DNA of 64,000 nucleotides from a bacterium. GTDB taxonomy: Bacteria; Zixibacteria; MSB-5A5; GN15; FEB-12. This document shows, piece after piece, positions 2,920 to 21,924 of this stretch. The stretch is from assembly GCA_043811375.1 (NCBI GenBank), contig JBDRNJ010000027.1, positions 15,539 to 79,538 of the forward strand, written 5' to 3'. Within the stretch, counting starts at the first letter, position 1. Each line of letters begins with the position of its first letter. The notes beneath the pieces are model-generated. The model did no database searches, was not told where the DNA came from, and saw only the letters and a program-made list of their open reading frames with translations. The position numbers were made by a program, and so were the translations under genes.

Positions 2920-3684
2920 CTACCTTGTCCGACCAGTGTGGGAATGTGCAACATCGGACAAGCCCAGCATTACTTTTTGTGTCAGGAGTTTCTTGGCAAA
3001 CCGGGCATCCCCTCCAGACTGTTCAGCTATCTCCTGAAGCTGTTTGGCGGTCGGCTTGGTCTTGTGATCAGATTTCTCCAGATCATGCTTTAAGAGCTGG
3101 ATGATTTCTTTCGTCGTATAAGGATTGAAGTTGACGAAGATCGGACTCAGGCGGGACCAGACTCTCGGCTCGATCCCGAGTTTCTGTGGTGTCTCATTGG
3201 AGATGGCTACAATCCAGAAGTTCCCCATCTCATGGAACTGGTACAACACTGCGTTGCGTTCTTTTGTGTCCAATCGGTCAATCCCGTCAATGATATAGAT
3301 GCACTGCTTCTTGTCCATGTGCTTCTTTATGCGTTCGATCTTAAACCGCGTATCCTGAAGCTCTGCCCTAAGAATGGAAAACTGGTCAACAATGTCGTTT
3401 ACGAGGGCATATAGGGAGTTTGAGTTCCAACAGTTGCTGCATGCGACAGAGGCCTGTCTGGTCTCAGCAAGCTCTGACGCGGCATACTGGGCGCAATGGG
3501 TTTTGCCGGCTCCCTGGGATCCCCAGATCCAGGTATGCAATGGTGTAGGATGTTTGCCTACATGTGAAAGTATCCGTTGGAGTGCAGTAAGCTCCCTCTG
3601 GCGTCCGACTGGTCGCTGGGGTTTTGGAATAGGCTTTTGCCATGAGGGTTCTCTAAGCTGCTCTTCAAGCTGTCTGTAGGCCAT
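2920..3684 (-). CDS. Orc1/Cdc6-like AAA+ ATPase without a C-terminal winged helix
   Basis: Walker A GSQGAGKT, SNCW, Walker B IIDGID, VAISN sensor 1, SRL arginine finger, FNPYT, GDAR sensor 2. Confidence 0.85.
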   Translation of the reverse strand: MAYRQLEEQLREPSWQKPIPKPQRPVGRQRELTALQRILSHVGKHPTPLHTWIWGSQGAGKTHCAQYAASELAETRQASVACSNCWNSNSLYALVNDIVDQFSILRAELQDTRFKIERIKKHMDKKQCIYIIDGIDRLDTKERNAVLYQFHEMGNFWIVAISNETPQKLGIEPRVWSRLSPIFVNFNPYTTKEIIQLLKHDLEKSDHKTKPTAKQLQEIAEQSGGDARFAKKLLTQKVMLGLSDVAHSHTGRTR

Positions 3685-3748
3685 ATGGATGATTATCGAA
3701 CTAAGCTTTATAAGCCTCTCGCGCGCATGGGAGTGCTGTATTGCGGTT

Positions 3749-5794: not shown

Positions 5795-5885
5795 AGACAA
5801 TTCCTGCTGCGCTGAACTGGTTACACAGACATACATCCGTAAGTGAGTGTGGCTGACGTGATATGCCTGATCGTAACTAACAATC

Positions 5886-6314
5886 TCACTTGAGACTTCT
5901 GCTGTTCTTTTTGGAGGAATTATTCTTTGCCTGCTGTTCCGCTCCCCTGACGGCTTCGAAAAGATCTCTGATGTCCCTGATGTCCCTCCTCAGGGTTTGA
6001 ACATCCCTCCAGAAGTTGACTTTTTGTTCTCTGGTTTCTTTGCGAATACGGCACAGCCGCTCTTCCAACTCTAAGCGGCGCTTCTCGATGATTGGATCCA
6101 CTCCAAGGGTCCATTTTGTCAGGTCATCTAGTGTGATTATGGTAGCCCGACCTTCCTCGCGTAGCGAGTCGACGCATTCTTTTTCGATACGATGCCGTTC
6201 CTTTACCTCTTTCAAGAGTTCGTCCATCTTGGTTCTTATTCTGGCTGCCACCAGGTTCTTGATTTCAGGTTCTGGGCTCCTTTGATTGGAGTTTTTTCGG
6301 GGCATAGGAATCAC
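5886..6314 (-). CDS. Coiled-coil hypothetical protein upstream of the ATPase
   Basis: Charged helical protein with FWRD motif, co-oriented with the ATPase, diverged partial homolog at 7289-7429. Confidence 0.75.
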   Translation of the reverse strand: MIPMPRKNSNQRSPEPEIKNLVAARIRTKMDELLKEVKERHRIEKECVDSLREEGRATIITLDDLTKWTLGVDPIIEKRRLELEERLCRIRKETREQKVNFWRDVQTLRRDIRDIRDLFEAVRGAEQQAKNNSSKKNSRSLK

Positions 6315-6762
6315 TGAGGTTGTTGGGGTGAATTGGTGGCAGAGTTTATATTGACTGCGGGCGAGAGCAATGTCAAAGTACGTGATTAAAGATTTGTCAG
6401 CAACATGGCGTCTGAGAATTGACGGGATTCAAGGCTTGCCAAGATGTTTTTCTCGGACGTGAGTCCGCCGGTAGTAGACACAGCTCTCCATCTGCTAATA
6501 CTCCTCACATTTTCGTGGGACTAAGCTTGACGGCTTAGGATGTTATTGTATTATTGTATCTGCTCCCTTTCTGGCTCGTCCTTTGGTTCATCTCTTGGCT
6601 CATTCTATCTTGCGATTATGAATTATGTCTCTAAGCTGGTCACGCGGGCATTTGTTTGAAAAGTGCTGATATCAAGTGGCAGGCCTAATAGGTTGAGTTT
6701 ATAAATACTAGTTTCACCAATTATAATACAGCTATGATTATTATAGCGGGTTGTTCGATAGT

Positions 6763-7173: not shown

Positions 7174-7207
7174 TTCCGGTTGCAACTTATTAAACAGATG
7201 TTACTTC

Positions 7208-7429
7208 TTAGACAAATCTGGTTATGGGAATTTTATTCAGGTCTTGCGACAGTCTTGGAGCATGCTTTTCATCATGCAGAAATTTCAGGCATCCTTTTTC
7301 GATACGGTGCCGTTCCCTTACCTCTTTCAAGAGCTCATCCATCTTGGTTCTTGTTCTGGCCGCGACCAAGTTCTTGATCTCGGGTCCGCGACTAGTCTGG
7401 TGGGAGTTCTGTCGAGGCATTGACATCAC
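7208..7429 (-). pseudogene. Truncated homolog of the 5886-6314 coiled-coil gene
   Basis: First 47 codons align ungapped with 6174-6314, then similarity stops abruptly. Confidence 0.8.
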
Positions 7430-7672
7430 ATAACTGGATTTGTATGAATTGTATCAGGGATTGAAATTGGTTGCGCGCGATGAGGTGGCCAGAAAAGCTT
7501 TCCTGCTGGTGTACTCAAAGCGGACTTTCCACAGCCCTTTAACGATCGACAGAAAGGGATTGCGCTTCTGACAGTACTTCAATATGATATTGCGAGAGGT
7601 GGTTGAGTATTCGTAATGATGTGTGCGATGGCGTAACAGAATGGTTTTCTTCTCGGTTCCTGCCAGCAGGTA

Positions 7673-7719: not shown

Positions 7720-7825
7720 GAGTATACGAGATCATATCGGTGTTGAGTTCACCGAGCAAGTCAGATTGACAAACCTTTGGTAGTGTACCGGTGTCAAACA
7801 GGTGAAGTAAGGAGGACCGCGGATA

Positions 7826-8428
7826 ATGGACAAGTGGTATCTGAGAATTTCCATGGTGCGGGGTCTTGCGATCAAAAAGGTCTTTCGGGATTTGAAGAGG
7901 GAACTGATCCGGAGATTTCCAGTCGATAAGATCAGTACATGGGATAAGGAAATCGGAGAATTCGGTGGTCCTCACGAGACGAGTTCGGACGAATTAGACA
8001 GTAAACACCGTGAACTCTCCTCCAATTATAAGGGCCGCTACTGCTACGAATCTGAGTACCATAGAAAACTACACACAGTAAAAAAGCGCTGCCGCGAGGT
8101 AAGCGAGGCAAAGACTACAGCAATGATCTTGCAGAAGTTGGCGACTCGCAGTGATGAATTCTCAGCTGAAGTGGGGAGCCCCGTCGAGCAGATTGAGTAT
8201 ACCTCTTCTTACGCGTATTTTGGTCGTTACGATTGCCGAATCACAGTATTTTCTGGACCTCATATTGATAAAGGATTTGAGCTCTTGGAGTGGTTAAATC
8301 AATTAGGACTTCCATACGACACGTACAAAAAGGCTCTGCAAATGGCAGCAAGTATTGTAGGACAGGGGGGGGATACATTGGAATGTATTGAGGAACGAAT
8401 CGAAGGGTCTTTTATGTCTCATGGATAA
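7826..8428 (+). CDS. Hypothetical protein
   Basis: 200-aa ORF with AAGGAGG RBS. Confidence 0.65.
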   Translation: MDKWYLRISMVRGLAIKKVFRDLKRELIRRFPVDKISTWDKEIGEFGGPHETSSDELDSKHRELSSNYKGRYCYESEYHRKLHTVKKRCREVSEAKTTAMILQKLATRSDEFSAEVGSPVEQIEYTSSYAYFGRYDCRITVFSGPHIDKGFELLEWLNQLGLPYDTYKKALQMAASIVGQGGDTLECIEERIEGSFMSHG

Positions 8429-8695
8429 AACAGAATGTATCAGTGTAAGCGATAGGTCGCCGATACTACGGATACGTGGCTAAGAGTTTTGGCAACAATC
8501 CTGTAGTTCACCCAACGGGTGGGTTCCTCTTCGAGCGAACTCGATACTCAGGATTCGCGAATCGTTCAGCTCGGGGTAATCGGTCAGAAACATGCAGACA
8601 ATGGAAAGTGTTGTCTATGTATGTCATCGAAAGAGCAAGGATTTGACCTATCGAACTGAATTCTCTTTTGTGAACCTCTTCTGGAGATAGATTAA

Positions 8696-8836
8696 ATGGC
8701 TTTTACACAAACCTGGGTGGCTCTCCAAGGCCACCTCAAAGTAGGTACTATCATTCCCAATTGGACCAAAGACCACGGATATCTTGGCGATTCATTCTCG
8801 ATTATATCGGTTAGGGTCCAGAATCAACGGAGTTGA
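8696..8836 (+). pseudogene. Short, probably truncated gene (MAFTQTWVALQ...NWTKDHGYLGD)
   Basis: GGAG RBS, protein-like 46 aa ending next to the convergent membrane gene. Confidence 0.4.
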
Positions 8837-8860
8837 TTGCTTGCTCGCGTGCGGCGCAAT

Positions 8861-9892
8861 CTATACTTCATCATTCTGTTCCTCATCTATGATGTCGTGC
8901 AGTTCCAGCCAGCATATGGTGCGGTAAAACCAGGTCTTGGTCAAACGAATCCCAACAGAGTCTGGCTTGAGTCGAAGGAATCTGATGAGAGCTATGACAT
9001 ATGGCGCACTGTACGCGATAACACCGACTATTATAACCTCAGATTCAAATGGAAGTGTCAGAACGTGTTTACCGACATCCGCTGGTCCTCCCCGAATGAA
9101 TTTCGCTGAGAACACTATGAATACAGCAATTGATCCCACAATTGAGACGTTGGCACTGTTGAGAAAACAGGTAGCGGCAGCCAGCAGTTTTCTCCTATCA
9201 ACCTTGGAATCACGTAGCTGGCGTGCAAAGAAGTCGGATAGGTGAAACATCAGCACAAGAGGGATGTAGCCGACGCAGAGTAGGAACACATTGACGGCAC
9301 CTTCCACAAGCTGTAACGTTCGTATTGATGCGATGCTCGAATTGCAGAAGAACGTTCCGACTATTGGCAATAGCGGTTCAGCCCGACAACTTTCTAGATA
9401 CGTGATTATGGCAATGGATATTGCAGCCGCGTAAACGACCCAGTATTCTGATTTCCATACAAGGCTGGAAGCCAGCCTCGGCTCGCAGGACTGAGGGATT
9501 CGCCTGACTGACCTGTGCATCAGCCCCACGAGTACCATAGCAGCCAATAGTATCCATAGAGTACCGTCATCCAGCCGACTGGAAACCCCCCGTCCGATGA
9601 GTCTGATACCGGTGAAATCCCTGTAATCCTCTTGCACTACAAGGCCCACGGCGTCGGCACTGATCGAGTCCCTGTTATGTTTGTCGAGTACTTGGAGTCG
9701 AACCGAAGGCCTGATGCTCCGCTTGTCAGTATCTTCGGGCATGCTTTGGCCTTCCGGTATTCCTACAATTACGACCTCGTTTGCAGCCAATAGGCAAGTC
9801 TGGGCGATCTTCAAGACAAAATGGAAGGCGACCGCCACTAGGAGGATATTGAGAACCAGTCTTGTCGTACGTTCGGCAGTATGTCTACTCAT
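8861..9892 (-). CDS. Multi-pass membrane hypothetical protein
   Basis: 343 aa with about six hydrophobic helices. Confidence 0.7.
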   Translation of the reverse strand: MSRHTAERTTRLVLNILLVAVAFHFVLKIAQTCLLAANEVVIVGIPEGQSMPEDTDKRSIRPSVRLQVLDKHNRDSISADAVGLVVQEDYRDFTGIRLIGRGVSSRLDDGTLWILLAAMVLVGLMHRSVRRIPQSCEPRLASSLVWKSEYWVVYAAAISIAIITYLESCRAEPLLPIVGTFFCNSSIASIRTLQLVEGAVNVFLLCVGYIPLVLMFHLSDFFARQLRDSKVDRRKLLAAATCFLNSANVSIVGSIAVFIVFSAKFIRGGPADVGKHVLTLPFESEVIIVGVIAYSAPYVIALIRFLRLKPDSVGIRLTKTWFYRTICWLELHDIIDEEQNDEV

Positions 9893-10001
9893 GAGTGCCC
9901 ACAGTGGATTGGCGTGACACCGAACTTACAGTCTTTAAGGCAGAGATTCAAGAGTTCGCCCAAACAGATGCAGTCAATGATCGTACATCTGGCAAGAGTT
10001 G

Positions 10002-10661
10002 TCAAGATTCTACCCACGAACACCCCCTGCCAAGTGTCCCCTCCCGAGGACTAGATTGAAACTGTTTGAGCATGATAGTCGAGGAGTCTGTCCCGTATTT
10101 TCGTGCACTGTCATAGCTGGCACTCGCTTCCTGCTTCCTACCCAGATAGCCCAGAACAGTTGACCGCAAGAACCAAGCTGTTCCAGAACTACGATTCATG
10201 AGAATCGCTCGGTCAATACTATGTAGCGCGGAATTGAGTGCTCGCATAGCACTATCATTCTGGTTTCGTTGTGCTAAGTCCTCTCCCCACATGGCCAAAG
10301 CGCCACCTTCGAGCTCAAATGCGCTTGAGCGGAGTTCCTGGCTAAGTGCGGTGTCTGCGGCGAGCCTCCGAAAACTTGTGACGGCATCACGGTATTGTCC
10401 CATTGTCAACTTGAACACCCCCTCGTCTATCAACTCTTCGTATGCGGCAGCTGACTGGTTTACTTTTGACATCTCTACTTTGATCTGCTCGAGAAAGTCA
10501 GGCCATAAGGCAACAAAGTAGAACAGGAACGGTACAGTTATCAACCAGATAAGGCGACTTCGCCTTAGTTTGATCTTCTTATAAGCTCTCCATGCACCCC
10601 TATCTGTCACCCAAAGTAGAGAGCCAAAGACAAAAATCACAAGCACTATCACTAACCACAT
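10002..10661 (-). CDS. Membrane-anchored TPR protein
   Basis: Two N-terminal TM helices, TPR-like AWFLRS.VLGYLGRKQEA; GGAGG RBS. Confidence 0.75.
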   Translation of the reverse strand: MWLVIVLVIFVFGSLLWVTDRGAWRAYKKIKLRRSRLIWLITVPFLFYFVALWPDFLEQIKVEMSKVNQSAAAYEELIDEGVFKLTMGQYRDAVTSFRRLAADTALSQELRSSAFELEGGALAMWGEDLAQRNQNDSAMRALNSALHSIDRAILMNRSSGTAWFLRSTVLGYLGRKQEASASYDSARKYGTDSSTIMLKQFQSSPREGTLGRGCSWVES

Positions 10662-11070
10662 CTCAAGCCTCCATTGGTGAGCGGCGAATGTTCAAATTCG
10701 ACGTCCATACAGCAATCAAAGACGATTCTTTCCAAAGGCGTTACCCAGAGGACTGAATCGTATGTCGTCGAACAATTCGGGCAGGTTGATACCTCAGGTT
10801 ATGACGCGCTTTGCCCGATGTCAACTGCTAATCCATTTGCATGAATGCAATAGGAAATCTCGTTTCGATGGATTGAGTTCTGTGTATTGAGTAATCCAAG
10901 TGAGCGTAAGTGAATGTTTGATAATATCTTACGACAATGGCGAGGGGCTTGGGATACATATCGAACTCTGATAGGCATAGGGGGACTTAGGATTCGAACT
11001 ATTGAGGAGTTGCCCGTTAAAGAAATCACGAGTTAGGCAGCTTCCACAGGTTGAACTTGGTCAAAGAAGG

Positions 11071-11107
11071 TCGTTTCGAAGCTGAAGCGCAGATGGGCGC
11101 CGGAGCC
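11071..11107 (+). repeat. 37-bp direct repeat, copy 1
   Basis: 35/37 identical to 11953-11989. Confidence 0.9.
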
Positions 11108-11114
11108 ATTCTAA

Positions 11115-11723
11115 TCAGCGTTGACCTTGGTGGAACAGTGCTGGACGTCCATAACCGAACGTATAGCCTAAAGGCCATTCACATCGAACATCTAAGTCGA
11201 GAGACTTGAGTAAGAAGAAAACTGTGTGCCCGGGTGTGTGAGCAAACCTGTGTGTGCTAGTATCTGTTAGTTTTCGTAGTTTTCGTTCACCCAGCTTTGC
11301 TGACAGGCGGGCACGTAGATAAAGCAGCAGCCAGTCCCGATACGCTGGAATCAGCATTGACTCGAAAGCGTGGATCAACTCATGAAGAAGAGTGCATTTC
11401 GATTCAGTATCACTTAATCCAGTTTTGACTAAGATAGTCCGCTTTTTCGAGTCACATCGCCCAAGTGTCGACGATCTAAAACGGCGGTAACGGAAAGCCC
11501 ACCGGACGATTGTGAGACTGCCAGGATCTTGGAGGTCCAACTTTTCCTCTCTTCCGTCGTCATGCTTAAAAAATGCTAACCGGTTGAGAATATACCGAGA
11601 TTGAAGAGTGAGATCGCGGAAATACCGATACTCGTATCGTTGTGCCTGGAGGTACAATTCCCACTCATCTTCCGTCCTTGAGTGGATCCATCCTTCAAAG
11701 GCGTTCTCTCTTTGATGCTTCAT
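11115..11723 (-). CDS. SprT/ImmA-like zincin metallopeptidase
   Basis: TLGRC...TLLHELIH (HExxH) and downstream GH..FF. Confidence 0.75.
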   Translation of the reverse strand: MKHQRENAFEGWIHSRTEDEWELYLQAQRYEYRYFRDLTLQSRYILNRLAFFKHDDGREEKLDLQDPGSLTIVRWAFRYRRFRSSTLGRCDSKKRTILVKTGLSDTESKCTLLHELIHAFESMLIPAYRDWLLLYLRARLSAKLGERKLRKLTDTSTHRFAHTPGHTVFFLLKSLDLDVRCEWPLGYTFGYGRPALFHQGQR

Positions 11724-11952
11724 ACCACCCAGCCTTGTATGTCATTTCTCATCAGCCACCTACGAGCATATTCGAGGCGCCCTATCGGTTTTAGCTCCCT
11801 AACCTTAGTTCAATTTGGCTCTTCTGTCAAGCTGTAGAATGTGTATGCTCGTTAAACCGTAATCCAAGAACATTTATATAATTGGGGGTAGCCACTGGCC
11901 TTCTCCATATTGACATATAGTTCTTGCAACGCCAGAACTTGGGTGCATGCTC

Positions 11953-12146
11953 TCGCTTCGAAGCTGAAACGCAGATGGGCGCCGGAGCCGCCCGCAAGGG
12001 GACGGCTCCTGTTCGGAAGTCTCCGAACCGCCACATTCTGCCTTTCCACTGCCTGTGGCAGCGGCGCTTCTCGCTCACCCTTCGGGGTTCACTGCTGACA
12101 GGAGGTAAAAGGATAGTATAGGGCGCGCGTCAGCGGGTCCTTTTAG
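11953..12146 (+). other. Structured non-coding locus (repeat copy 2, hairpins, possible pseudoknot); candidate origin/oriT or ncRNA
   Basis: GCAA- and TTCG-capped hairpins; crossing pairs gctgac/gtcagc and taaaagga/tcctttta. Confidence 0.5.
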
Positions 12147-12162
12147 ATCAAGAGGTGAAAAG

Positions 12163-12318
12163 ATGAGAGAGACGACTGAAGAATACGATGACGAATCCCA
12201 CGAATTTGCTGTGTGCGGTTTGTGTGACAACGAGTTCGTTCCCTGTGGAAACCGGCAGTGCTGGGGCAATGATTATTGCCCCGATTGTATAGAACCTAAG
12301 GAGTTGGTGAGAAAATGA
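12163..12318 (+). CDS. 51-aa zinc-finger microprotein, missing from the ORF track
   Basis: GAGGTGA RBS; MRETTEEYDDESHEFAVCGLCDNEFVPCGNRQCWGNDYCPDCIEPKELVRK; ATGA overlap with next gene. Confidence 0.7.
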   Translation: MRETTEEYDDESHEFAVCGLCDNEFVPCGNRQCWGNDYCPDCIEPKELVRK

Positions 12319-12605
12319 CCATGGGGAGAATAATCCGCAACGGTGACGGCTTCGAGTTTGTCGAGTTGGACGAGCTTGAGCAGGACGAGATTATCAGGTG
12401 TGCAATCGACAGGAACCTAAACCTCTACACGCGTGTGGAAAAGTCTGTTCAGGAGCATTTGTTGGCAACTCATATGCATGATCCCAGCGACTTGCAGAGG
12501 CAATTAGCTCTGGCCATCTTTGAAGTAGTGGCAGTTAGAGCAAATGTGCTGCTGAGAAGTGAGCTCAGCCGCAAGATACATTGGACAAAAGAAGGTCAAG
12601 GATAG
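12315..12605 (+). CDS. Small helical hypothetical protein
   Basis: 96 aa, translationally coupled to the microprotein. Confidence 0.7.
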   Translation: MTMGRIIRNGDGFEFVELDELEQDEIIRCAIDRNLNLYTRVEKSVQEHLLATHMHDPSDLQRQLALAIFEVVAVRANVLLRSELSRKIHWTKEGQG

Positions 12606-12869
12606 ACTGAGGAGTCAAAGGCTGGGCTCCGAACCGACACTTGGGCAGGAGCATAAGGTCCTCATGGCAAAGAAGGACTCATCCAACCAGAAGCTCTGTT
12701 ACAAGAGAGCCTTTCTGGTTCCAATGACTGCGAGAACGCTACGGAGTTGGCCGCGATGCAGGAGAATCGTCTGAATGTGGAAAATTGGCAGCTTGCTTTA
12801 GCTGACCGGTTGTACTATTATTGATAAGACTCTGTGAATGCGTACTTGGCACAGATGTAGGAATTTTGC

Positions 12870-15002
12870 ATGGGACGGGTACTACTAAGTGCACCTGTAG
12901 CCGACATTGCTGATGAGCTCAAGCGATTTGCACACGCTGAGGAACTTTCATTCCGGAAAGTTGACAGCTCTCTTGATTGTTCGGCCCTTGATTACGTCGG
13001 GGAGCATCCGAAGCATCCCAGCGACAGCTGGATTCGATGGGAATTACGGGAACAGGCGAATGGCGTTGTTCTAAATGTTGACGTGGGTATACTTCGGGGT
13101 GCGCTGAGATTCACAGGCGTAATTCTGCTCCTTGGTATGGGCGGTCTTTGTGTGGTTTTCCTAATGCTCTCCGGTCTTGTCCCTATTGCCTTTCAGTCTC
13201 GCCTGGGACGGCTGCTAGTCATCGGATCGCTGTGCACTGCTGCTGTTGCTGGTCCATTTGTATTGTTTCTTACGCACCGTGCACGTCGGGCTGAGTGGGA
13301 TTTCTTCTCCCATCTTGAGAAATCATTCAGTTTCCGGATCTTGGAGCCAGTTGAAGGCAAAGTGTTTGGAAGAAATACGGATGCATTGCTGTTCATGCCA
13401 GCTTCATTGGTTCTGGTCGTTTGCTTCAGTCTCTTTGTTCCTCTTGTGGGAGTGCCTTTTCTTTTGATTGCTGGGTCAATGATGCTGACCTACTTATGTA
13501 GGATTGTACTCCAGCGCGGTCAGATTTCGAGTTGGAGGGCAGATATTGCAACTAACTACTTTGAGTGGACGATACCCGTGGCAACGGCGGTAGCTTGCCT
13601 GGTGCTTGTCTGTGGCTCGCCGCTGGCTCTGGAAGTCTATGTTCAGAACTACGATGAAGAATCCACCCCACTTGGCTATCTTCGGGTTAGACGAGATCCG
13701 CTACTGCTATTCGAGCGAAGAGATGAAGATCCTGTTGAACTGAAGGCGACATGGACACAGAGGGTGGTCAGCTCGATAACAGAAGCGCCAGTGAATACCG
13801 AACCGTTGTCAGTGAACGGGCAACCGCGAAGCGGCACATCTGAGAGAAAGTTGACAGGGGAAGCCTTGCGAAAGATGGCCAGGGACATCAGGCGGCTCAT
13901 TGGTGACATGTCAGATACAAATGTGTGGATTGTGATCCTGCTCATGGGCCTTACCCTAGCCAAGGTCATTCATCTGGGAGGCAAGTGGAGACACGTATTT
14001 GTGTCCGGTACGAAGTCTCCAGGTCGCATAGGGGAGCTCTATATAGAAGATGTAAAGCTTAAGGGCCTAAGCCGGTCTTTACTGGTGACGTCAAGCGCGC
14101 TGGCAATGCTGTGTGGACTGGCCCATGGCGTTCTTATCATACAGTTGGTCGCCTACGTTTTTGGCGTGCAGTTCCTTTTGATTGATGAAGTCCATGTACT
14201 ATTTGCTCGTGTCGACGCGATGCGCATGGCTGGCCTTGAAGGTGCCAGTTTGCAATCCCAGGTCTCAAACCACACGTTGTGGTTGTGCGCGCTGACTGCT
14301 TGGTCGTTACCAACTGCCTTGATTGCAGCGAATCGGCTTATTAGAAGGCTTCGGCGTATTTACTTCAGCACCAAGCGACGGTTGCACTCATCTTGCGAGA
14401 TAGATTTACCATTCTGGCTGGGGCAAGGCATCCGCAAATGGTCGGCTGCGATTGGTGTAACTACACCGAAACTCGTAATCACAGATTCCAGAGACGTTAG
14501 AGTGCACTCGGAGTGGCGCTTGTTCCAGGGAAGCGGAGCCGTAGTCGTGACACAAGGAGCATTGACTGTACTGCGGCGGGGCGAAATGAAGGCAATTGTG
14601 TGCCACGAATTAGGACACCTGCAGCGAGATTGTCGACGCATCTCCTTGCTTACGCTGTTCTGTAGAGTGACGCTCGTGCCTTATGGCTTTGCAACACTGT
14701 TTTACGATTTCGAACGTGCAGAGGTACTAGCGGATGAAGTGGCAGTAACTGCTTGCGGTAGCAAGAGGCAACTGATTTCGGGATTGGCTAAACTTTCCAT
14801 GGTAATGCGGGTGAATCGGGAGTCTCAAAGCAGGTTTAAGGGGAGTGAATCGTGGAGCCCGTCCCTCTGGATGCGGACGGGATGGCAACAACTCAGAGTC
14901 TTGTATGATTTGTATCTGGGAGAAGAAATGGTCGGCTATTCTTATCCAACTTTTGTTGCTCGACTGAATCGCTTGCGGGTAAGTCAGGGCGAAAATACCT
15001 GA
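12870..15002 (+). CDS. Polytopic membrane protein with C-terminal M48/M56-type zinc peptidase
   Basis: Many TM helices; VVTQGAL, AIVCHELGH, EVLADE, YPT..ARL. Confidence 0.85.
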   Translation: MGRVLLSAPVADIADELKRFAHAEELSFRKVDSSLDCSALDYVGEHPKHPSDSWIRWELREQANGVVLNVDVGILRGALRFTGVILLLGMGGLCVVFLMLSGLVPIAFQSRLGRLLVIGSLCTAAVAGPFVLFLTHRARRAEWDFFSHLEKSFSFRILEPVEGKVFGRNTDALLFMPASLVLVVCFSLFVPLVGVPFLLIAGSMMLTYLCRIVLQRGQISSWRADIATNYFEWTIPVATAVACLVLVCGSPLALEVYVQNYDEESTPLGYLRVRRDPLLLFERRDEDPVELKATWTQRVVSSITEAPVNTEPLSVNGQPRSGTSERKLTGEALRKMARDIRRLIGDMSDTNVWIVILLMGLTLAKVIHLGGKWRHVFVSGTKSPGRIGELYIEDVKLKGLSRSLLVTSSALAMLCGLAHGVLIIQLVAYVFGVQFLLIDEVHVLFARVDAMRMAGLEGASLQSQVSNHTLWLCALTAWSLPTALIAANRLIRRLRRIYFSTKRRLHSSCEIDLPFWLGQGIRKWSAAIGVTTPKLVITDSRDVRVHSEWRLFQGSGAVVVTQGALTVLRRGEMKAIVCHELGHLQRDCRRISLLTLFCRVTLVPYGFATLFYDFERAEVLADEVAVTACGSKRQLISGLAKLSMVMRVNRESQSRFKGSESWSPSLWMRTGWQQLRVLYDLYLGEEMVGYSYPTFVARLNRLRVSQGENT

Positions 15003-15084
15003 GCTTGAGACCTTCAGGGTCGGCCATCCACACATGAGTCTCAATTGGTGTAGTTGACGGGAAAGGAAGTAAAGCAGTAAGGAA

Positions 15085-15933
15085 ATGCAGACTGAGGTAC
15101 TCTTACATAAAGCATGCTCAAATGCCGCGGAGATAATCTTCCCGGAGGAGGCGTTGTACTTTGAAGAAATATGGTCAGCATATGTGGACATTCGCAAGAG
15201 ATCAAGGACCGCATCCAGTCAGAGTGGTGAGGTTATTGGGCTGGATGAATCTGCTTATCTCGGAGCCATCAGCGGTGATGCCGTGGCAGCGTTTTATAGC
15301 CTGTTCTCAGTGATAGATTCCGCACTTGCAGATTTCGCCAGTAGTCAGGCAGAGCCAACCTTGAAAAGCATTGAGCACACCTTGAACAGGTACGCAGAGA
15401 AGCTCCGGATGGAGCCTTGGCTACGTCGGCTAGTCCGAATGCATATCCCAGGAATTCTTCATACTGTTCTCAGTGGTGGTGTTGAACTGCCACAAGAAAC
15501 GCTTCGCACTGAAAATGTGATTGATGAAGACGGAGAAAGTTTATGGGTACATTCCCATCACTACAAGGGGGAAGCGGACACGGACGCTGTTGAAAAGTTC
15601 CTAGAGTCACATGAGTATGATATCATCATGGATGAGCGTGTTCCGATGTGTTGGGTACGCAAGTCGGATGGAACAAAGAGACGCTTGGGCGTAGCTGGGC
15701 CACAATGGGAGCTATTGAAACAGTTTCTACTGAGTGTTGGTGGTTGTTGTACCTACCAAGCAATTGAGCAGGATGTATATGGGGGGGAGTATGTTCCCAA
15801 TAACACGATTCACGCTCTAAAAAAGAGACTCATGGAGAAACTTCCAAGCATGTTTGAAGACTCAGTTGTTGGTGATGAAGCAGGTTACTTAATTGATCCG
15901 GAGCGGCGGCTCCGCTTCCTGCTCGTGTATTAA
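15085..15933 (+). CDS. Unknown N-terminal domain plus OmpR-type winged-helix DNA-binding domain
   Basis: C-terminal WELLKQFL..CTYQAIEQDVYG..NTIHALKKRLMEKL..GYLI. Confidence 0.7.
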   Translation: MQTEVLLHKACSNAAEIIFPEEALYFEEIWSAYVDIRKRSRTASSQSGEVIGLDESAYLGAISGDAVAAFYSLFSVIDSALADFASSQAEPTLKSIEHTLNRYAEKLRMEPWLRRLVRMHIPGILHTVLSGGVELPQETLRTENVIDEDGESLWVHSHHYKGEADTDAVEKFLESHEYDIIMDERVPMCWVRKSDGTKRRLGVAGPQWELLKQFLLSVGGCCTYQAIEQDVYGGEYVPNNTIHALKKRLMEKLPSMFEDSVVGDEAGYLIDPERRLRFLLVY

Positions 15934-15952
15934 AGCACCTTATAGTCCCTTA

Positions 15953-16543
15953 TCAATCGGCAACCTGGGCTGATAACCCTCGGTTCGAGAGCATCTTTTC
16001 AGCGGCAATACTGGGGTGCGCGTAGATGTCCAGTAAGTCTCGCAGCAACTCTGCGTAGGTTGTGCAAAAGCCATCATAGTCAATGTAGAGCGGTGCATCG
16101 CTAAGGGTAATCCCCAACTCCGACACCAAGTGAGTAACAACATCTTGTTGGATGTCTGTCCTCAGATCGTCGAGCCTCTTCTGGATTCCGACCAAGTGCA
16201 CATAACGGCTAGGCTGCCGTTCAATAAGGTCTTCATGGAGTATTGGGTAATCTGCTGCATTGCCGCCGGCTAATGGCCCTAGCGCAAAGACATCAACTAC
16301 CGCAGAACTACGGTCGTGCAGGCGGAAATACTTGGCGGCCAGTGCCTTTGCAGCCGTGGCGACAAGCTCTTCATCGTCAGCTTGAAGAGGGTAGTCCTCA
16401 GCAACCCTCCCTGAGATGTTCCTCCCGCGAAGGTAGTCTGTGCAGACGTCAGATAGGTTTCTACCATTATCGCGGAAACCGTCGATAGACCACGACCTAT
16501 ATTGCCAATATCCCTTCTGATCAGGCAATTCTATTACTGTCAT
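15953..16543 (-). CDS. Hypothetical protein
   Basis: About 196-aa ORF, ATG 21 nt after a BRE-TATA-like box. Confidence 0.65.
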   Translation of the reverse strand: MTVIELPDQKGYWQYRSWSIDGFRDNGRNLSDVCTDYLRGRNISGRVAEDYPLQADDEELVATAAKALAAKYFRLHDRSSAVVDVFALGPLAGGNAADYPILHEDLIERQPSRYVHLVGIQKRLDDLRTDIQQDVVTHLVSELGITLSDAPLYIDYDGFCTTYAELLRDLLDIYAHPSIAAEKMLSNRGLSAQVAD

Positions 16544-16564
16544 GAATTGCAATGGATGAAAGCC

Positions 16565-16582
16565 TTTATAAAGTTTTTCCCC
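16565..16582 (-). promoter_or_regulatory. Archaeal-type BRE-TATA-like promoter
   Basis: GGGGAAAAAC-TTTATAAA ending 21 nt before ATG 16543; no Shine-Dalgarno. Confidence 0.45.
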
Positions 16583-16763
16583 TATGTGTACCTAGTCCAT
16601 CAGGACTCAGTCATCACCCCGTAAGCGTTTCGTCAGGTTGACCTTATTACTTGAAGGCAGGTCGCGAGGCCTGCGTGAAGCTCGTGACCTCTTGAACGGA
16701 GAAGATGAAATGATCACGAGAGAACTTCGCAAGCAATGTCTTGAATGTAAGGAGGACACCATC

Positions 16764-17321
16764 ATGCCAAATGAATTGAAGGTCTTGGTCCTTATAGACC
16801 AGGCGAATCTGCACGGGCAGGCCACTTCACTTAACAAGCGGTTCAACATAGTGAAACTCTATGAGCGCCTCCTCGGGTCTGAGAACGGTGTCGGCCGAGG
16901 CGATTGCATCGTGTATGCGCCGGTGCTGCCGGGGAATCCGGACGGTTCACATGGGAACCACGACTGGCTCAGGCATTCAGGGTTGCAGGTGGTAAGCAAG
17001 CGAGCGAAGCGCCTTCCTGATGGTACCGTGAAGTGTGATATGGACGTGATCCTTGCACTGGACGCAATGGAACTGGCTCGGGAGGCAAAGCCGGATGTCA
17101 TCATCTTGGCGTCGGGCGACGGCGATTTCTCTCCGCTGGCGATCAGGCTCCGGAGAATGGGAATAAGGGTCGAAGCGGCAAGCTGCAAAGGAAGCTTGGC
17201 AGGTGAACTCCGCGCAGCTTGTCAGCGTGTCATCGAACTGGACGAGTTTTTCTCAAAGCCTGAGAAGATGGATGAAAGCGCGGTCATCACTGCGGTTCCT
17301 AGTGTTCAGGATGTCGCATAG
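16764..17321 (+). CDS. NYN domain (LabA/DUF88, PIN-like) ribonuclease
   Basis: LIDQANL, KCDMDV.LALDA, ASGDGDF, GIRVE; AAGGAGG RBS. Confidence 0.92.
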   Translation: MPNELKVLVLIDQANLHGQATSLNKRFNIVKLYERLLGSENGVGRGDCIVYAPVLPGNPDGSHGNHDWLRHSGLQVVSKRAKRLPDGTVKCDMDVILALDAMELAREAKPDVIILASGDGDFSPLAIRLRRMGIRVEAASCKGSLAGELRAACQRVIELDEFFSKPEKMDESAVITAVPSVQDVA

Positions 17322-17349
17322 GACAATGAAACGATAGGAGGAAAAAACC

Positions 17350-18219
17350 ATGAATAGGCTTCAGATTCGGAGAATGAGGAACAGGCTGGATCAGCTTCAC
17401 GATCCTCGCCGTCTGAGGGCAGAGCTGCTTCGCTGTCGGAAGATTGCCTGGTTGGACAGGTCCAAGCTTCGTGGTGAGGAAATCAATGTAGTCAGGCAGT
17501 TCCGGAAGCAATACGGGCGATGGTTCGGGGACGAGGGGATGCCAAGGTTTCCTTCCGACGAATGGAGCGCAAAGCTGAAAGGAAAGTCAATGAAGATTGG
17601 TGGCTGGGTTGGTCTTGCGCTTGAGAGTGGTATAGCAGCGCTTGTCTCTCCCGGCGTTCTAGCAATGCCACCTGTAAGGGCGGCCGTGGTCGGAGTAGGT
17701 GTCACCTTGGCGTTCGCAATCATGGTTAAAAAGGGGCTCTTGGCCGTGGGCTATGATGAGGATGACCCGATCCGAAGCCGGAACAGGCTAGCATGGCTCG
17801 GTTCGATCGTCTTGGGGATCAGCCTTTTGATGCTTGTCCCCTTCTTCCTGGGCAGAGCGAGCGCTGAAGTTGGGAGCCTGGCAGGCTGGGCGCTGGGCAT
17901 CCTCGGCGTCTCACTCCCTGTTACCGCCGCAGGCTTGCTGGCAGCCGGTGAGCTGACGTCTTGGCCCCAGCAGCTAACTAGGCAATTCAGGTCAATCCGC
18001 GCCAGGAGAGCGCGGGTAGAGGCCTTTCTGCTTGAAGTGAACATCAAACTGGAGGATTTGAAATGCAGAGCAAAGCACTCACACTGGCGGCCGCGCAGGG
18101 GATATTGGCAACGCTCTTCATCGCGTCATGCATGGAGCAAGAACCAATTCGGCAACAACGGGAACAGGAAGCGAGCTTCGAACGGTTCCAGGTTTTCGTC
18201 GATACGTCGGGCAGTCTAG
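17350..18219 (+). CDS. Four-TM membrane protein with basic helical ends
   Basis: Four hydrophobic segments, AGGAGG RBS; tail overlaps the next gene. Confidence 0.75.
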   Translation: MNRLQIRRMRNRLDQLHDPRRLRAELLRCRKIAWLDRSKLRGEEINVVRQFRKQYGRWFGDEGMPRFPSDEWSAKLKGKSMKIGGWVGLALESGIAALVSPGVLAMPPVRAAVVGVGVTLAFAIMVKKGLLAVGYDEDDPIRSRNRLAWLGSIVLGISLLMLVPFFLGRASAEVGSLAGWALGILGVSLPVTAAGLLAAGELTSWPQQLTRQFRSIRARRARVEAFLLEVNIKLEDLKCRAKHSHWRPRRGYWQRSSSRHAWSKNQFGNNGNRKRASNGSRFSSIRRAV

Positions 18220-18929
18220 ATGAGCAGGAATACCGCACCGTGATAAACTCCGTTTGCGCCTCGCTGGATACGTTGGTGGAATTATTCAGCACTCGGTATC
18301 TATCGGTGATACCGTTTTCGGCGGGGCCGGATCTTTGGAGCGGTTCGCACGTGACGGCAGTCCTGCCGGAACCACCTCTGGTAGAGGTGAGAGCTGACGT
18401 TCAAAACGAAGCTGCGCTTCTGTTCAAGAAGTACCAAGCCAAGCTCCAAAAGGAGGCTGATAAGGAACAGAAGCAAGCGCGGCTTGCTGCTCGAGGTGCT
18501 TATATGAGTGCCGTCGGGGACTCAATTGCGCCTGTCTTGATGTTCCTCTCTGGCCTCCTTCAGGGCGACGCCGAGTGCACCTCGTTGAACGACCTCGCGG
18601 TGCGTTGCGGTTCTGACGGGAGCAACACCTTATCACTTGTCATCACCGACGGCGTGGACGATTGCGGTGCATTGTCGCGCGAATCAGTGGAGAAGCCTGA
18701 GGGCAATTCAGTAACGGTGGTTTTCCTGGTGCCTACGAAACGTGATAGGCAAAAGCACGGGGAGTACGGTGAGCTACTGAAGGCACGGAGTGAAGCCCTG
18801 AAGGTGCTTCTTCCATCGGCGATAATCCTTCCCGGATACATGAGTTCCCGCCTCGATTCATGGCTGAGCGAGATAGTGCAGAAGAGAAAGGGCACGGTTG
18901 GCTCGGATTGGGAGGACCTTGATGGCTAA
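18063..18929 (+). CDS. vWA-domain lipoprotein
   Basis: Lipobox FIASC, MIDAS DTSGS, T, VITDG; coiled insert; GGAGG RBS. Confidence 0.85.
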   Translation: MQSKALTLAAAQGILATLFIASCMEQEPIRQQREQEASFERFQVFVDTSGSLDEQEYRTVINSVCASLDTLVELFSTRYLSVIPFSAGPDLWSGSHVTAVLPEPPLVEVRADVQNEAALLFKKYQAKLQKEADKEQKQARLAARGAYMSAVGDSIAPVLMFLSGLLQGDAECTSLNDLAVRCGSDGSNTLSLVITDGVDDCGALSRESVEKPEGNSVTVVFLVPTKRDRQKHGEYGELLKARSEALKVLLPSAIILPGYMSSRLDSWLSEIVQKRKGTVGSDWEDLDG

Positions 18930-19182
18930 GCATTCATCCGGCAACCAGTTGGATCTGTTTGACAGCTTGAATAGCGAGGTTGCGAGGTCTGCGGACCTGG
19001 ACGCTGAGGAGATATCTCGGCAAGAGAGGCATCAGCCCGGGGATGGGCAAACAGTATCAACGACGGAAGCCACGATAAAGGAGGATGTGTGCGCGTGTCA
19101 TCAGTGCGGAAAGCACCGTGCTGGCGCAGACGATGAAGTGGAAGAGCTTGTCACAGCACTTTATGGCCCAGGAAATACGTGA
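18922..19182 (+). CDS. Small hypothetical protein (QLDLF motif, CxCxxC)
   Basis: GGAGG RBS, overlaps vWA stop. Confidence 0.6.
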   Translation: MAKHSSGNQLDLFDSLNSEVARSADLDAEEISRQERHQPGDGQTVSTTEATIKEDVCACHQCGKHRAGADDEVEELVTALYGPGNT

Positions 19183-19240
19183 GAGTGTTGAGTTGAACTC
19201 TCCAGTTAGGCGAGAACGGAAGATAGATGGAGGAACTGAC

Positions 19241-19630
19241 ATGGATAAAAAGAGCAAACCGGATGACGACGCCCTTGAACTGAAACGGGACGTTAGCAGG
19301 GAGCGGATAGGCCGTGACGTTGCTGAGACCGGACAGGTCAAGCAGGTGGTGAAGCGGGAGTTTGAGTTCGACGGCGTGCTTGGCAGCGAGACAATAATCG
19401 AATACGCTCAGCTTTACTGCGGTCACTTGTCGCCGGCTAGTGCTGGTGGCCTCTGTGTCTGCGGGCGAAGTTACTGTCGGGCGTGCCTGGAGTCTGCAGG
19501 AGCCAATTGCAGCGTTTGCGGCAGGCTGATCGGACCCTGCTGCGTTTCTCGATCGTGCCTGGATCAGGACCGCGTGTACTGCAAGCAGTGTCGGTTTTTT
19601 GGCTGGTTAGCTTGGCTATTTGGAGGATGA
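19241..19630 (+). CDS. Cys-rich zinc-finger protein with hydrophobic tail
   Basis: CVC, CRAC, CSVC, CC, CKQC; GGAGG RBS. Confidence 0.75.
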   Translation: MDKKSKPDDDALELKRDVSRERIGRDVAETGQVKQVVKREFEFDGVLGSETIIEYAQLYCGHLSPASAGGLCVCGRSYCRACLESAGANCSVCGRLIGPCCVSRSCLDQDRVYCKQCRFFGWLAWLFGG

Positions 19631-19635
19631 TTACA

Positions 19636-19857
19636 ATGGCTTGGATCTTACTTTTGCTCGGGCTCTTTTTCGTGTTCACCAGGATACTGCCCTCCCGAAA
19701 TGGGGCAGTTGTTACAGGGTTCCTCATGCCCGTAGTGTTTATCCTGTACTTGGCTACTGTCTCTCCCAACCTCGCGCGATTCGTTGCGATTATCATCGGC
19801 CCAATTCTCCTCGTGGCTTTTCTGAGGTTGAGGTCCAAAGGCCGGCGTGGGAAGTGA
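19636..19857 (+). CDS. Small 3-TM membrane protein
   Basis: 73 aa hydrophobic with basic tail; GGAGG RBS. Confidence 0.7.
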   Translation: MAWILLLLGLFFVFTRILPSRNGAVVTGFLMPVVFILYLATVSPNLARFVAIIIGPILLVAFLRLRSKGRRGK

Positions 19858-21178
19858 CAGTATAGGGTCCAAACTCATGTGGCGCGAACAGAGACAATTG
19901 CAGAGGTTGGTCAACCTGCTCGGAACATCTGAGCCTCGCGTGTCACGCCTGGAAAGGCTGGCGGCGCTGCATCCGGAGAAAGTCCCACAAGTCTTGAGGT
20001 CGCTGAGTCTCTTGGCAATCAGGCGAGGCCTTGACCCGACCAACATGCCTGCGTTTCCGGTCTGCCGGAATGCCTTGCCGGCTGATGGCGTGCACCTCGG
20101 AGAGCAGATGTTCGGCGAGCAACCCGTGGGCGAACTGCGGCTCGGTATTGAAGACATGCTTGGGTCACACGTTCTTGTCGCAGGGGTCACAGGCTGGGGT
20201 AAGACCTACCTGCTTATGTATATTCTCCAGCAGCTAGTCAAAATGGCATATCGCGTATGCGTCTTTGATAGCGAGTCCGAATACTGGAAGTTTGCGGAAA
20301 GAGCTGGGCTGGATCAATGCTGGTTTGTCCATCTCGAAGACGACAAGGACAACCCGCTCCAGCAACCGCCCAATGTCCCGGTAGGCAAGTGGTTCGCCGC
20401 CTGGAAACGCAGCGTGCGCGAGGTCATGTGGTGCCGGGAAGGCATGATCAATCTGCTCACCCTATGCATTGGCAACCTACTGAAGAATACAAAAGGACAG
20501 AAGCCAGAAAGGTCCCCCACCATCTCCAATCTTTACTCCCTGTTGAACAACATGAGGTTCCAGCCTGGAACCAGACGCGCTGGTTATCACGAATCGCTCT
20601 TAGACAGGGTGCAGTCGCTCCTGGACAACCTTGGCCCGATGGTGGATTGTGAGTCAGGATATCCACTGGAAGACCTTGCACGGAAAAGCCTCGTCTATGA
20701 CATTTCATCACTCAGCCAGGAAGCGCAGTTATTCGTCCTGCACCTTAAGCTCCTGAAGATGCAGCTCTATCGTGAGGCCCAACTGGAAGAGGCTGGGAAA
20801 GAGGCTGCTGCTACAGGCTCCGACGTTTTCGTTGTGGAGGAAGCTCACCGAGCAACGGCCAAGGTACTGGAGAAAAGGCCTGACCTCGGAGAGCCGCTGC
20901 TTTACGACTTGGTGAGGACGGGAAGAAAGCGCGGCGCCAAGTTCGTATTCGTCGAACAAGTGATAGCCGGAATCCCATACCAGATTCTTGGCAACATCAA
21001 CTGCAGGATCATAGGGAGAATCTCTGACGGCCGCTCTTTGATCGCACTCGCGCAGATAACGGGGTGGGACGACGATCAGCTGGATTTCATTCGGGAACTC
21101 CCGCCCAGACATTTTGTCATCCAGACGCCGCTAATACCTGATGGGGCCGTGTTCAAGGTACCGGATTTGAGTGAATGA
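19847..21178 (+). CDS. HerA/FtsK/VirB4-like ATPase
   Basis: HVLVAGVTGWGKT, VFDSESEY, VVEEAH, GRKRG, FVEQ, LGNIN. Confidence 0.88.
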   Translation: MGSDSIGSKLMWREQRQLQRLVNLLGTSEPRVSRLERLAALHPEKVPQVLRSLSLLAIRRGLDPTNMPAFPVCRNALPADGVHLGEQMFGEQPVGELRLGIEDMLGSHVLVAGVTGWGKTYLLMYILQQLVKMAYRVCVFDSESEYWKFAERAGLDQCWFVHLEDDKDNPLQQPPNVPVGKWFAAWKRSVREVMWCREGMINLLTLCIGNLLKNTKGQKPERSPTISNLYSLLNNMRFQPGTRRAGYHESLLDRVQSLLDNLGPMVDCESGYPLEDLARKSLVYDISSLSQEAQLFVLHLKLLKMQLYREAQLEEAGKEAAATGSDVFVVEEAHRATAKVLEKRPDLGEPLLYDLVRTGRKRGAKFVFVEQVIAGIPYQILGNINCRIIGRISDGRSLIALAQITGWDDDQLDFIRELPPRHFVIQTPLIPDGAVFKVPDLSE

Positions 21179-21924
21179 GTATGGATAAACAGGAATTGAG
21201 AAAACGCATGCGCGAAATCCTGGCGGAACTGGATTGGAGGGGTGCTGGAAAGGGCGGAAGTGAGGAACCAGAGACCCTGGAGGTTGCCGGAACCTCGGGA
21301 GGAGCAAATCGCTGGGTGACTGTCCGGGATGCGCATAAGAAGGTCTTGGCCAGCGTGGCGAAAAATCCCTTCTACTCGATCACTGAGCACACAGAGGCAA
21401 TCGGGAACATAAGCGCCTGGGTTATGGCCAGAGTGATTGAAGAACTGACAAAGATAGGCTTTCTGGGAGAACCTCTGCCACTCTCGCTTGGCAAACGCGG
21501 AAGCCCGAGGCGGTATCTCAAGATCACACCCAGAGGTGCAAAGCATATCGGTGTAAAATTCGAAGACTGCCGGATACCTGGCAAGGGGTCTTTCGAACAC
21601 TGTCTATACCAAGACATCGTTTACCGCTTTCTTAGAGCCAAAGGCCGGGCTGTCCTGATTGAGCAGACATATAACGGCAAGGCAGTGGATGTAGTGGAGC
21701 ACCTTGACGACGGCAAGGTCAGGGCATACGAGATCGAACTTAGAGCTATCGGGCATGTCGCTGACAATATACGTGGTGATCTAGACGCTGGGTGCATGGC
21801 GGTCATAGTGGTGACGCGGAACCGATCCGAAGAGAAGCGGATTTCCTTGGCAGTCTATGGCAGGCTTTCCGCCGAGATGCTGGAGCACGTCAGCTTCCGG
21901 ACGATTGGAGAGTTTGTTCAATGA
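21175..21924 (+). CDS. Winged helix plus PD-(D/E)XK nuclease-like protein
   Basis: Homologous to the C-terminus of 3749-5794; GSFEH, IEQ, VDVV, AYEIE; ATGA-coupled to the ATPase. Confidence 0.8.
   Translation: MSMDKQELRKRMREILAELDWRGAGKGGSEEPETLEVAGTSGGANRWVTVRDAHKKVLASVAKNPFYSITEHTEAIGNISAWVMARVIEELTKIGFLGEPLPLSLGKRGSPRRYLKITPRGAKHIGVKFEDCRIPGKGSFEHCLYQDIVYRFLRAKGRAVLIEQTYNGKAVDVVEHLDDGKVRAYEIELRAIGHVADNIRGDLDAGCMAVIVVTRNRSEEKRISLAVYGRLSAEMLEHVSFRTIGEFVQ

Follow-up and report, generated by a model that had tools for sequence, protein, structure and literature searches.

Two ATPase–winged helix–nuclease modules as the probable core, and candidate transfer machinery, of integrative elements at tRNA genes

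The described systems closest to the island reported here are mobilizable elements with MOBC-type relaxases and minimal transfer systems of archaea, both presented below from excerpts of the sources cited. MOBC relaxases belong to the PD-(D/E)XK enzymes and have a DEE metal site (PMC6736028), and one of them, TraX, joins an N-terminal winged helix to a restriction-type active site (PMC12857230). Streptococcal integrative mobilizable elements (IMEs) show the order coupling protein, relaxase, excisionase, integrase, and the IME class with VirD4 and PF13814/MobC has a compact block beside a serine integrase (PMC5357655). In the excerpt on archaeal conjugative elements no relaxase is identified (PMC12857230); in archaeal plasmids and integrative and conjugative elements (ICEs) transfer involves two ATPases that can be recognised, and a relaxase is not known (PMC12857230, PMC6563490), and the Ced system comprises CedB and CedD (PMC11868833). 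Here we analyse a stretch of 64,000 nucleotides (nt) from a bacterium of the Zixibacteria lineage FEB-12 (GCA_043811375.1, contig JBDRNJ010000027.1, positions 15,539 to 79,538), hereafter the window. At its tRNA-Asp locus lies an island with two modules, A and B, each made of an ATPase, a winged helix and a nuclease-like domain. Feature coordinates refer to the whole window (Table 1).

Modules A and B very probably form the conserved core of site-specific integrative elements that insert at tRNA 3' ends, a reading that draws on comparison of sequences. In the window, a tyrosine integrase, an excisionase and a tRNA-Asp gene lie just to the right of the interval covered by the original prediction, which a model had made from the letters alone, and were overlooked there. 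Attachment (att) repeats at both ends are present in two related elements: one of 54 kb (G071) is bounded by 48 bp direct repeats of a tRNA-Arg 3' end, the other of 46 kb (G091) by 50 bp direct repeats of a tRNA-Ala 3' end, and each holds A and B inside its one pair of repeats. A match to A is present in 15 of the 61 related genomes, counting the host, and 10 strong loci lie in genomes other than the host's. In nine of these 10 the contig also encodes a second, distant ATPase, and the tenth sits on a short contig; gene order is common to nine relatives. With each species represented by one genome, a scan returned 219 relatives, of which the best 80 loci, spread over many bacterial phyla plus five archaeal records, were analysed. 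Pairing was counted in 35 genomes selected for long contigs, which hold 46 of the 80 loci. A second ATPase–nuclease module lies within 70 kb of A in 21 of the 46, and in 10 of the 15 loci whose contig extends at least 50 kb to both sides of A. By our own arithmetic, chance would pair a few percent, at one to three modules per genome of 3–8 Mb. Fourteen of the 21 partner modules were inspected, and all 14 scored as non-A; orientation and spacing of A and B are variable (3–69 kb). The neighbourhood survey of relatives thus bore out the expected association with integrase/tRNA islands. In the host phylum the nuclease occurs in 28 of 251 genomes, with up to four matches per genome, and the nuclease family as a whole comprises 2,718 clusters at 50% identity.

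The predicted ATPase–winged helix–nuclease architecture was found at both sets of open reading frames (ORFs), in the positions given for them, and the C-terminal motifs quoted in the prediction contain the conserved nuclease residues. The two genes of module B overlap by ATGA. Module A's ATPase matches DUF87 (E 4e-11), HerA_C and, over a short stretch, TrwB_AAD_bind; both ATPases have the Walker A/B motifs plus the conserved Arg and Gln of the FtsK/HerA superfamily, the Walker residues being invariant or nearly so in each module. The A and B ATPases are 21% identical over 377 amino acids (aa; E 7e-14). Pairwise alignment of their C-terminal parts is weak (E 2e-4), and profiles of them align firmly, at an hhalign probability of 99.95% over 202 columns. 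Judged from sequence, the modules are old paralogues. In AlphaFold models (pLDDT 86.6 and 92.6) the motor matches the HerA, DndH, VirB4 and TrwB folds, and the winged helix is of the MarR type (Z up to 11.0, root-mean-square deviation (rmsd) 5.1, 99 residues aligned). The modelled nuclease domain is restriction-endonuclease-like, matching AF1548 (Z 10.1, rmsd 2.8, 100 aligned) and the Pyrococcus repair endonuclease 2vld (Z 9.3, rmsd 3.4, 97 aligned). Homology of the two C-terminal domains and their nuclease fold are therefore supported by hhalign and the models, respectively. Among A homologues, H576, E597 and D606 are kept in 60/60 and E619 and E621 in 59/60; in the nuclease alignment E163, D172 and E186 are present in all 76 rows and H142 in 75. 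D..ExE is found in both nuclease copies of the window.

Are A and B one machine encoded twice? The prediction had presented them as twins of the same architecture; the modules are not interchangeable copies, and their partners, positions and rates of change differ. A forms one branch with short branches inside (SH-aLRT 100 in a quick tree), a support that is partly circular because the A label derives from an A profile. By sequence, module A is one conserved clade and module B is diverse. Table 1 lists the partner genes that the prediction missed, a helical-hairpin gene for A and, for B, a Cys-rich gene and a small membrane gene; the hairpin gene has no Pfam family, and genes like the small membrane gene adjoin 7 of 24 B modules. 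This small membrane protein is a candidate for a separate membrane anchor of module B, to judge by its sequence. Within 10 kb of A we find an Orc1/Cdc6 gene (cdc6) in 28/80 loci and a recombinase in 24/80 (16/41 where the locus exceeds 20 kb); another tyrosine recombinase, a short one, is often near A. A recombinase lies within 10 kb of the B 3' end in 20 of 22 cases, a count that leaves out four B copies at region edges; the two others are at 10.4 and 12.0 kb and the closest is at 12 bp. A tRNA gene stands beside the recombinase in 13 of the 22, and B is oriented towards excisionase and integrase. Comparison gives the layout att – integrase – excisionase – module B – cargo – helical hairpin – module A, often with Orc1/Cdc6. 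In two of five further contigs another HerA-type ATPase, of 930–1000 aa, replaces B between A and the tRNA end (L185:16677-19475, L191:9011-12019).

The coexistence of a fused and a split module had been taken to mean that the ATPase works together with the nuclease as a unit. This holds up for B, which is fused in five and split in four of the nine relatives. It fails for A: in a reversal of the window's pattern, A is about 440 aa long and without nuclease in 9/9 of them, and the nuclease is gone from 12 Nanobdellota homologues as well. The latter (L173-L184) form a clade in which hairpin, ATPase and mostly the winged helix are kept, and which is possibly domesticated. As further observations around the modules, a Cas4/PDDEXK_1 nuclease gene lies between the hairpin gene and A in L055, L088, L098, L101, L102, L106 and G091. 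A membrane and coiled-coil protein of 380–490 aa, without Pfam family and a candidate channel component, adjoins cdc6 in L042 (7930-9399), L063, L072 and L108. Prokaryotic ubiquitin-like cassettes (ThiF/E1, E2, JAB) are cargo in 8/80 loci (L015:9566-11551 among them), often between B and the excisionase.

What is the relation to PF13814, the replication-relaxation family of which the nucleases had seemed reminiscent? Membership did not survive: PF13814 matches 0/12 proteins in one test and 0/76 rows of the nuclease alignment, and the best score with NF041423 (MobC_subf) is 25.8 bits against a cut-off of 200, with no match in the host genome. What remains is a distant link to MOBC. One B protein matches MobC_subf weakly (E 6e-6), as do 3 of the 76 rows (best E 0.002); hhalign against five true PF13814 proteins gives 27.7%, over the winged helix only. 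Structural neighbours in the Atlas at a TM score of 0.50 (165 residues) include Replic_Relax proteins and long TrwB_AAD_bind proteins; MOBC is not present among the solved-structure matches listed, which excludes nothing. As modelled, the modules would share with MOBC the combination of a winged helix with a PD-(D/E)XK domain and a DEE-type metal site. By sequence, the island nuclease stands outside MOBC/PF13814, as a probable distant relative. A true PF13814 gene, separate from the modules, occurs in 7/80 A loci. None of these seven has B on its contig, as opposed to 21 of 39 other loci (Fisher p 0.011, with kin that are not independent and some short contigs); this absence favours B as a mobilisation block.

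Signals of archaeal type accompany module A. About 40–70 bp 5' of the start of the helical-hairpin gene, 21 of 71 loci carry AA-NN-TTTATAW, which we take to be the archaeal BRE-TATA promoter consensus. Dinucleotide shuffles yield 0.7 such loci (maximum 3) and the opposite strand 2, a contrast that is inflated because the pattern was derived from these same loci. At unconstrained bases 5' of the motif, C occupies -3 in 18/21 and a purine -2 in 21/21. The 21 loci make up 15 groups at 70% protein identity, and all are filed as bacteria, four of them on contigs longer than 1 Mb. In one genome of 8.3 Mb the sole strict match is the hairpin-gene site, and in a second, three of eight matches fall within 3 kb of the site. 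The identification is backed by the Nanobdellota, where 8 of 15 loci have the same motif at most 1 kb 5' of the ATPase. By Pfam, TBP and TFB were absent from 5/5 bacterial genomes and present in four archaeal controls, and no TBP or TFB encoded by an element was found in the five. By eye only, a small helix-turn-helix (HTH) gene (7 loci) resembles TFB/sigma helices. ORB-like boxes, defined by a pattern that we presume to be representative, precede cdc6 in 7 of 29 cases, against 1.2 in shuffles (maximum 3). In the window, the hairpin gene lacks AA-NN-TTTATAW and is preceded, by eye, by TTGACA-N17-CAATAT, which was not among the scan's listed matches; three of 23 loose motif matches in the host genome fall inside the island. 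The start of cdc6 is preceded by TTATAAAG, some 20 nt away on the minus strand.

That module A and its signals are archaeal in type and have spread through bacteria is the best explanation. That 15 or more divergent lineages of bacteria keep archaeal promoters 5' of a core operon suggests cross-domain traffic; the alternative would be that bacteria read archaeal-type promoters in some unrecognised way. A simple archaeal origin is hard to square with two findings: archaea are missing from the 29-member subclade that accounts for 16 of the 21 motifs, and few archaea outside Nanobdellota have A relatives (15/201 in Nanobdellota; 9/301, mostly distant, 2/201, 2/128 and 2/201 in other sets). The idea of near-identical elements in different phyla was rejected, for two genomes filed under other names belong to the host's own GTDB class. 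A different signal follows A in one subclade: 75–170 bp 3' of the module lies the inverted repeat GAATCTTGGAAT-N13-32-ATTCCAAGATTC, with variants. At a perfect-arm score of at least 12, repeats were detected at 13/73 loci, 12 of them of this family, against 2 of 146 control windows; the loci are not independent because all belong to one subclade. At the window's module A it is missing by position, since cdc6 directly follows. The same subclade has an operon of a zinc-ribbon, a small HTH and a winged-helix gene, of no known family (L038:17927-19482, L052, L064, L070, L073), and a strict promoter motif stands just 5' of it in at least two contigs.

For most genomic islands no route of transfer is known. 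The family described here is a concrete and widespread candidate for such a route, with a MOBC-like nuclease on or beside its own motor twice per element. We propose that integrase and excisionase would release a circle. The winged helix of B would then bind a site on it and the B nuclease would cut there, as MOBC relaxases do, while the B ATPase, held at the membrane by the separately encoded small membrane and Cys-rich partners, could pump DNA like a coupling protein. A might serve as a second cut-and-pump motor completing a two-ATPase transfer apparatus, as VirB4 and VirD4 on archaeal plasmids or CedB and CedD, or it might prepare the circle together with Orc1/Cdc6; the inverted repeat 3' of A would be its candidate target in the one subclade. 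We hold the chances about even that the modules are the cut-and-pump transfer core of a cross-domain family of integrative elements. Sequence evidence gives a transfer role for at least B roughly one chance in two; that A and B belong to one machine is unlikely. Also doubtful, if slightly less so, is the boldest version, a class of self-transmissible integrative elements that shuttles between archaea and bacteria, with two motor–nuclease fusions in place of relaxase and type IV channel, and that keeps BRE-TATA promoters, Orc1/Cdc6 and ORB boxes under selection in bacteria devoid of TBP and TFB.

Several results weigh against transfer by these modules. Neither the 66 ORFs of the two complete elements nor the 24 of the window include a recognised channel or pilin gene (VirB2, VirB6 and the like). 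A helper type IV secretion system (T4SS) was sought in five host genomes and gave TrbL in 0/5 and marginal T4SS-DNA_transf and TraG matches only, although helpers may be transient. N-terminal hydrophobic (membrane) helices are present in 0/60 A ATPases and in 0/36 ATPases of the B alignment. The solved folds closest to the motor include HerA repair and defence motors no less than VirB4 or TrwB, and B-type nucleases have often lost the third acidic residue (E in 14/76). B is long-branched and receives no tree support as a single clade, five of the 15 long-contig A loci lack B within 70 kb, and the loss of the A nuclease described above belongs here too. No full-length match was found on plasmids or phages, with one marginal match among viral contigs, and no transfer origin common to the whole family was found. 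Nor did any informative joint of an excised circle emerge from one sequencing run, at 5% of words, and a related strain assembled as contigs.

Alternatively, the modules could be a replication and resolution core: the excised circle would replicate from an archaeal-type Orc1/Cdc6 origin, A (and B) would nick, unwind, translocate or resolve it, and spread would be passive, by transformation, vesicles or transduction. The cdc6 genes and ORB-like boxes fit this possibility, as do small conserved genes that look, by eye and with no Pfam match, like Holliday-junction resolvases (10 loci) and single-strand binding proteins (17 loci). Neither a primase nor the core of a helicase was recognised in the two complete elements. 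MOBC-type nucleases, too, can act in replication, as an excerpt of PMC5714925 describes. However, in 52/80 loci cdc6 is not seen within 10 kb, the window has a truncated cdc6 next to an intact A, and the membrane partners of B and its fixed site beside the integrase are left unexplained. We regard replication as possible, at perhaps one chance in four.

Rather improbable is terminase-like packaging, in which the element would be cut at a pac/cos-like site and pumped into a borrowed capsid or membrane vesicle. The motor-plus-nuclease layout and the inverted repeat after A would suit it, and PHROG 2666, labelled terminase large subunit, matches both ATPases (E 2e-12 and 2e-14), but only over short stretches; moreover, capsid and portal genes were not recognised in the elements, viral contigs offer one marginal match, and element sizes are very variable. 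An anti-phage HerA–nuclease system carried as island cargo, the alternative that the original prediction itself had named, seems similarly improbable to us. The PADLOC profiles HerA and mad8 match the ATPases (best E 3e-17), Sir2-HerA, DUF4297-HerA, DndH and Card1/Can2 are among the fold neighbours, and the islands do hold true defence cargo (restriction-modification, ABC-3C). Yet the PADLOC matches are partial, at superfamily level, and include neither the nuclease nor either partner, and the modules keep position and orientation relative to excisionase and integrase while cargo turns over, the pattern of core genes. Finally, two unrelated elements or cassettes gathering at one tRNA hot spot would account for A loci without B, the lone hairpin–ATPase pair of Nanobdellota, the variable orientation and distance and the second recombinase near A, but is made very improbable by the enclosure of both modules in one att-repeat pair in two elements, by one A plus one non-A in 14/14 inspected pairs and by the gene order common to nine relatives.

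Table 1. Features of the island at the tRNA-Asp locus, in window coordinates.
Feature	Position	Strand	Remark
Orc1/Cdc6-like initiator, truncated (AAA+ part; C-terminal winged helix gone)	2920..3684	-	TIGR02928 E 3e-24
TATA-like motif between module A and cdc6	3696..3715		putative role
Module A: HerA/VirB4/TrwB-type ATPase, winged helix and PD-(D/E)XK nuclease, fused, 681 aa	3749..5794	-	
Helical-hairpin (coiled-coil) partner gene of module A	5886..6314	-	homologue directly upstream of A in 75/80 loci
Helical-hairpin gene, partial second copy	7208..7429	-	162 nt at 78% identity; 65% over 63 aa
Variable cargo: TPR protein, SprT-like and M48 metallopeptidase domains, NYN nuclease, family-less membrane proteins	7826..18929		
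Cys-rich (zinc-finger-like) partner of module B; real start probably more downstream	19085..19630	+	similar gene 5' of B in 20/24 modules (by eye)
Small membrane protein, 76 aa, 2–3 predicted helices	19627..19857	+	hydropathy; overlaps B ATPase start
Module B ATPase, 443 aa	19847..21178	+	DUF87 E 3e-10
Module B winged helix and PD-(D/E)XK nuclease, 249 aa (H142, E163, D172, E186, E188)	21175..21924	+	
Acidic ORF 3' of module B	21953..22522	+	no family match
Six AATTGG/CCAATT hexamers clustered in non-coding gap 5' of excisionase	22706..22952		putative binding site
Excisionase-type HTH protein	23031..23264	+	HTH_17 E 5e-14; kept in 10 regions
Tyrosine integrase	23310..24359	-	Phage_integrase E 3e-29
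tRNA-Asp gene (24466-24540)	24463..24540	-	3' end = near attachment site

The window's cdc6 covers positions 23-241 of the 349-position profile of its relatives, and no convincing remnant of the missing part was found downstream of its ORF. Between them, the two hairpin copies (duplicated stretch 6153-6314 and 7268-7429) flank a low-GC ORF of 140 aa with a weak acylphosphatase match. The cargo ORFs share no cluster with other elements, and among the matches listed there was nothing convincing in the way of non-coding DNA common to window and other elements. Six of the 20 AATTGG/CCAATT hexamers in window positions 1-24400 fall in the 0.5 kb gap ahead of the excisionase. To the left of the window the contig encodes ArdC, MoxR/vWA and a short tyrosine recombinase; because these genes are common to related elements, the island measures at least 33 kb. 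A MoxR ATPase, a vWA/metallopeptidase and a third gene of 460 aa travel together (G000:C27:9430-13766 and 10/80 loci). As to the far att site, no repeat was found on the island's own contig, which starts inside an insertion sequence. Copies of the 28-bp tRNA-Asp 3' end at C32:1499 and about C32:17850 were considered and are not assignable, as they adjoin a serine recombinase gene or a possible remnant of one. These sites (G000:C32:1499 and ~17850) and G000:C28:1223-3124 show a second tRNA-Val/tRNA-Asp pair and a serine recombinase overlapping the tRNA end; together with the two partial tRNA-Asp copies, 16 kb apart on C32, this amounts to serine-recombinase islands arrayed in tandem at tRNA-Asp. 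Two further integrases, 39–40% identical to the window's, adjoin tRNA-Ser genes (G000:C83:24309-25406, C84:102171-103268), and tblastn detected no A or B module beside them.

How does the family compare with what has been described? No account of it was found in the literature searched, which took in few subscription papers and no supplements, and searches with defence and family profiles likewise agreed with the earlier view that no described system matches. The absence of a canonical T4SS, HUH relaxase or capsid, claimed for the window, extends to the two complete elements: none was recognised among the window's ORFs or the 66 ORFs of G071 and G091, a scan that covers ORFs of at least 90 aa within stretches and unassigned, so that remote homologues could escape. 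Provirus or satellite genes (capsid, portal, terminase, primase) were not found either, apart from the ATPase-only match to the PHROG labelled terminase, and PADLOC gave its partial HerA and mad8 matches and nothing for the nuclease or either partner. With HerA-NurA, Sir2-HerA, DUF4297-HerA, DndH and MADS mad8 the modules share a HerA-clade motor with a nuclease, and these are the top fold matches. Unlike them, the island proteins begin with a short helical bundle, profile matches starting near residue 90; their nuclease is a C-terminal PD-(D/E)XK domain behind a winged helix; and they stand in a mobile-element core without Sir2, NurA or Dnd neighbours.

Minimal archaeal transfer systems (pNOB8-type, pT33-3, thaumarchaeal ICEs, Ced) are alike in having two HerA/VirB4-like ATPases and, in the excerpts cited, no recognised relaxase, and some archaeal ICEs also have Orc1/Cdc6 (PMC12857230, PMC6563490, PMC11868833). 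The best NCBIfam match of the A ATPase is DNA-translocating CedD (E 4e-23, 82 bits against a cut-off of 600), and CedB reaches 36 bits at best against 700. Those archaeal systems have channel proteins. The island differs in that no VirB6/CedA-like channel or pilin is recognised, each ATPase has its own winged helix–nuclease and hosts are mostly bacteria.

With streptococcal IME class 8, CloDF13 MobB/MobC and pAD1 TraX the island shares a winged helix plus PD-(D/E)XK domain straight after an FtsK/HerA-superfamily ATPase, a compact block that ends at the recombinase, and the lack of a T4SS of its own. It differs in falling outside PF13814 and MobC_subf, as reported above, and in an ATPase with neither membrane helix nor T4SS-DNA_transf match (PF02534 does not match the modules, and PF10412 does so over about 40 residues only). 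It further differs in its frequent fusion, its second paralogous module, its Cys-rich and helical-hairpin partners and its archaeal-type initiator and promoters. By analogy, the island may behave as a mobilizable element with a MOBC-like nuclease and a coupling motor, both outside those families. Cryptic integrated elements, lastly, are likewise att-bounded, with an integrase, without conjugation or virus genes and in some cases with Orc1/Cdc6 (PMC6563490). That class, as the excerpt describes it, has no signature genes (PMC6563490), in contrast to the present family, which is mostly bacterial and has two signature modules.

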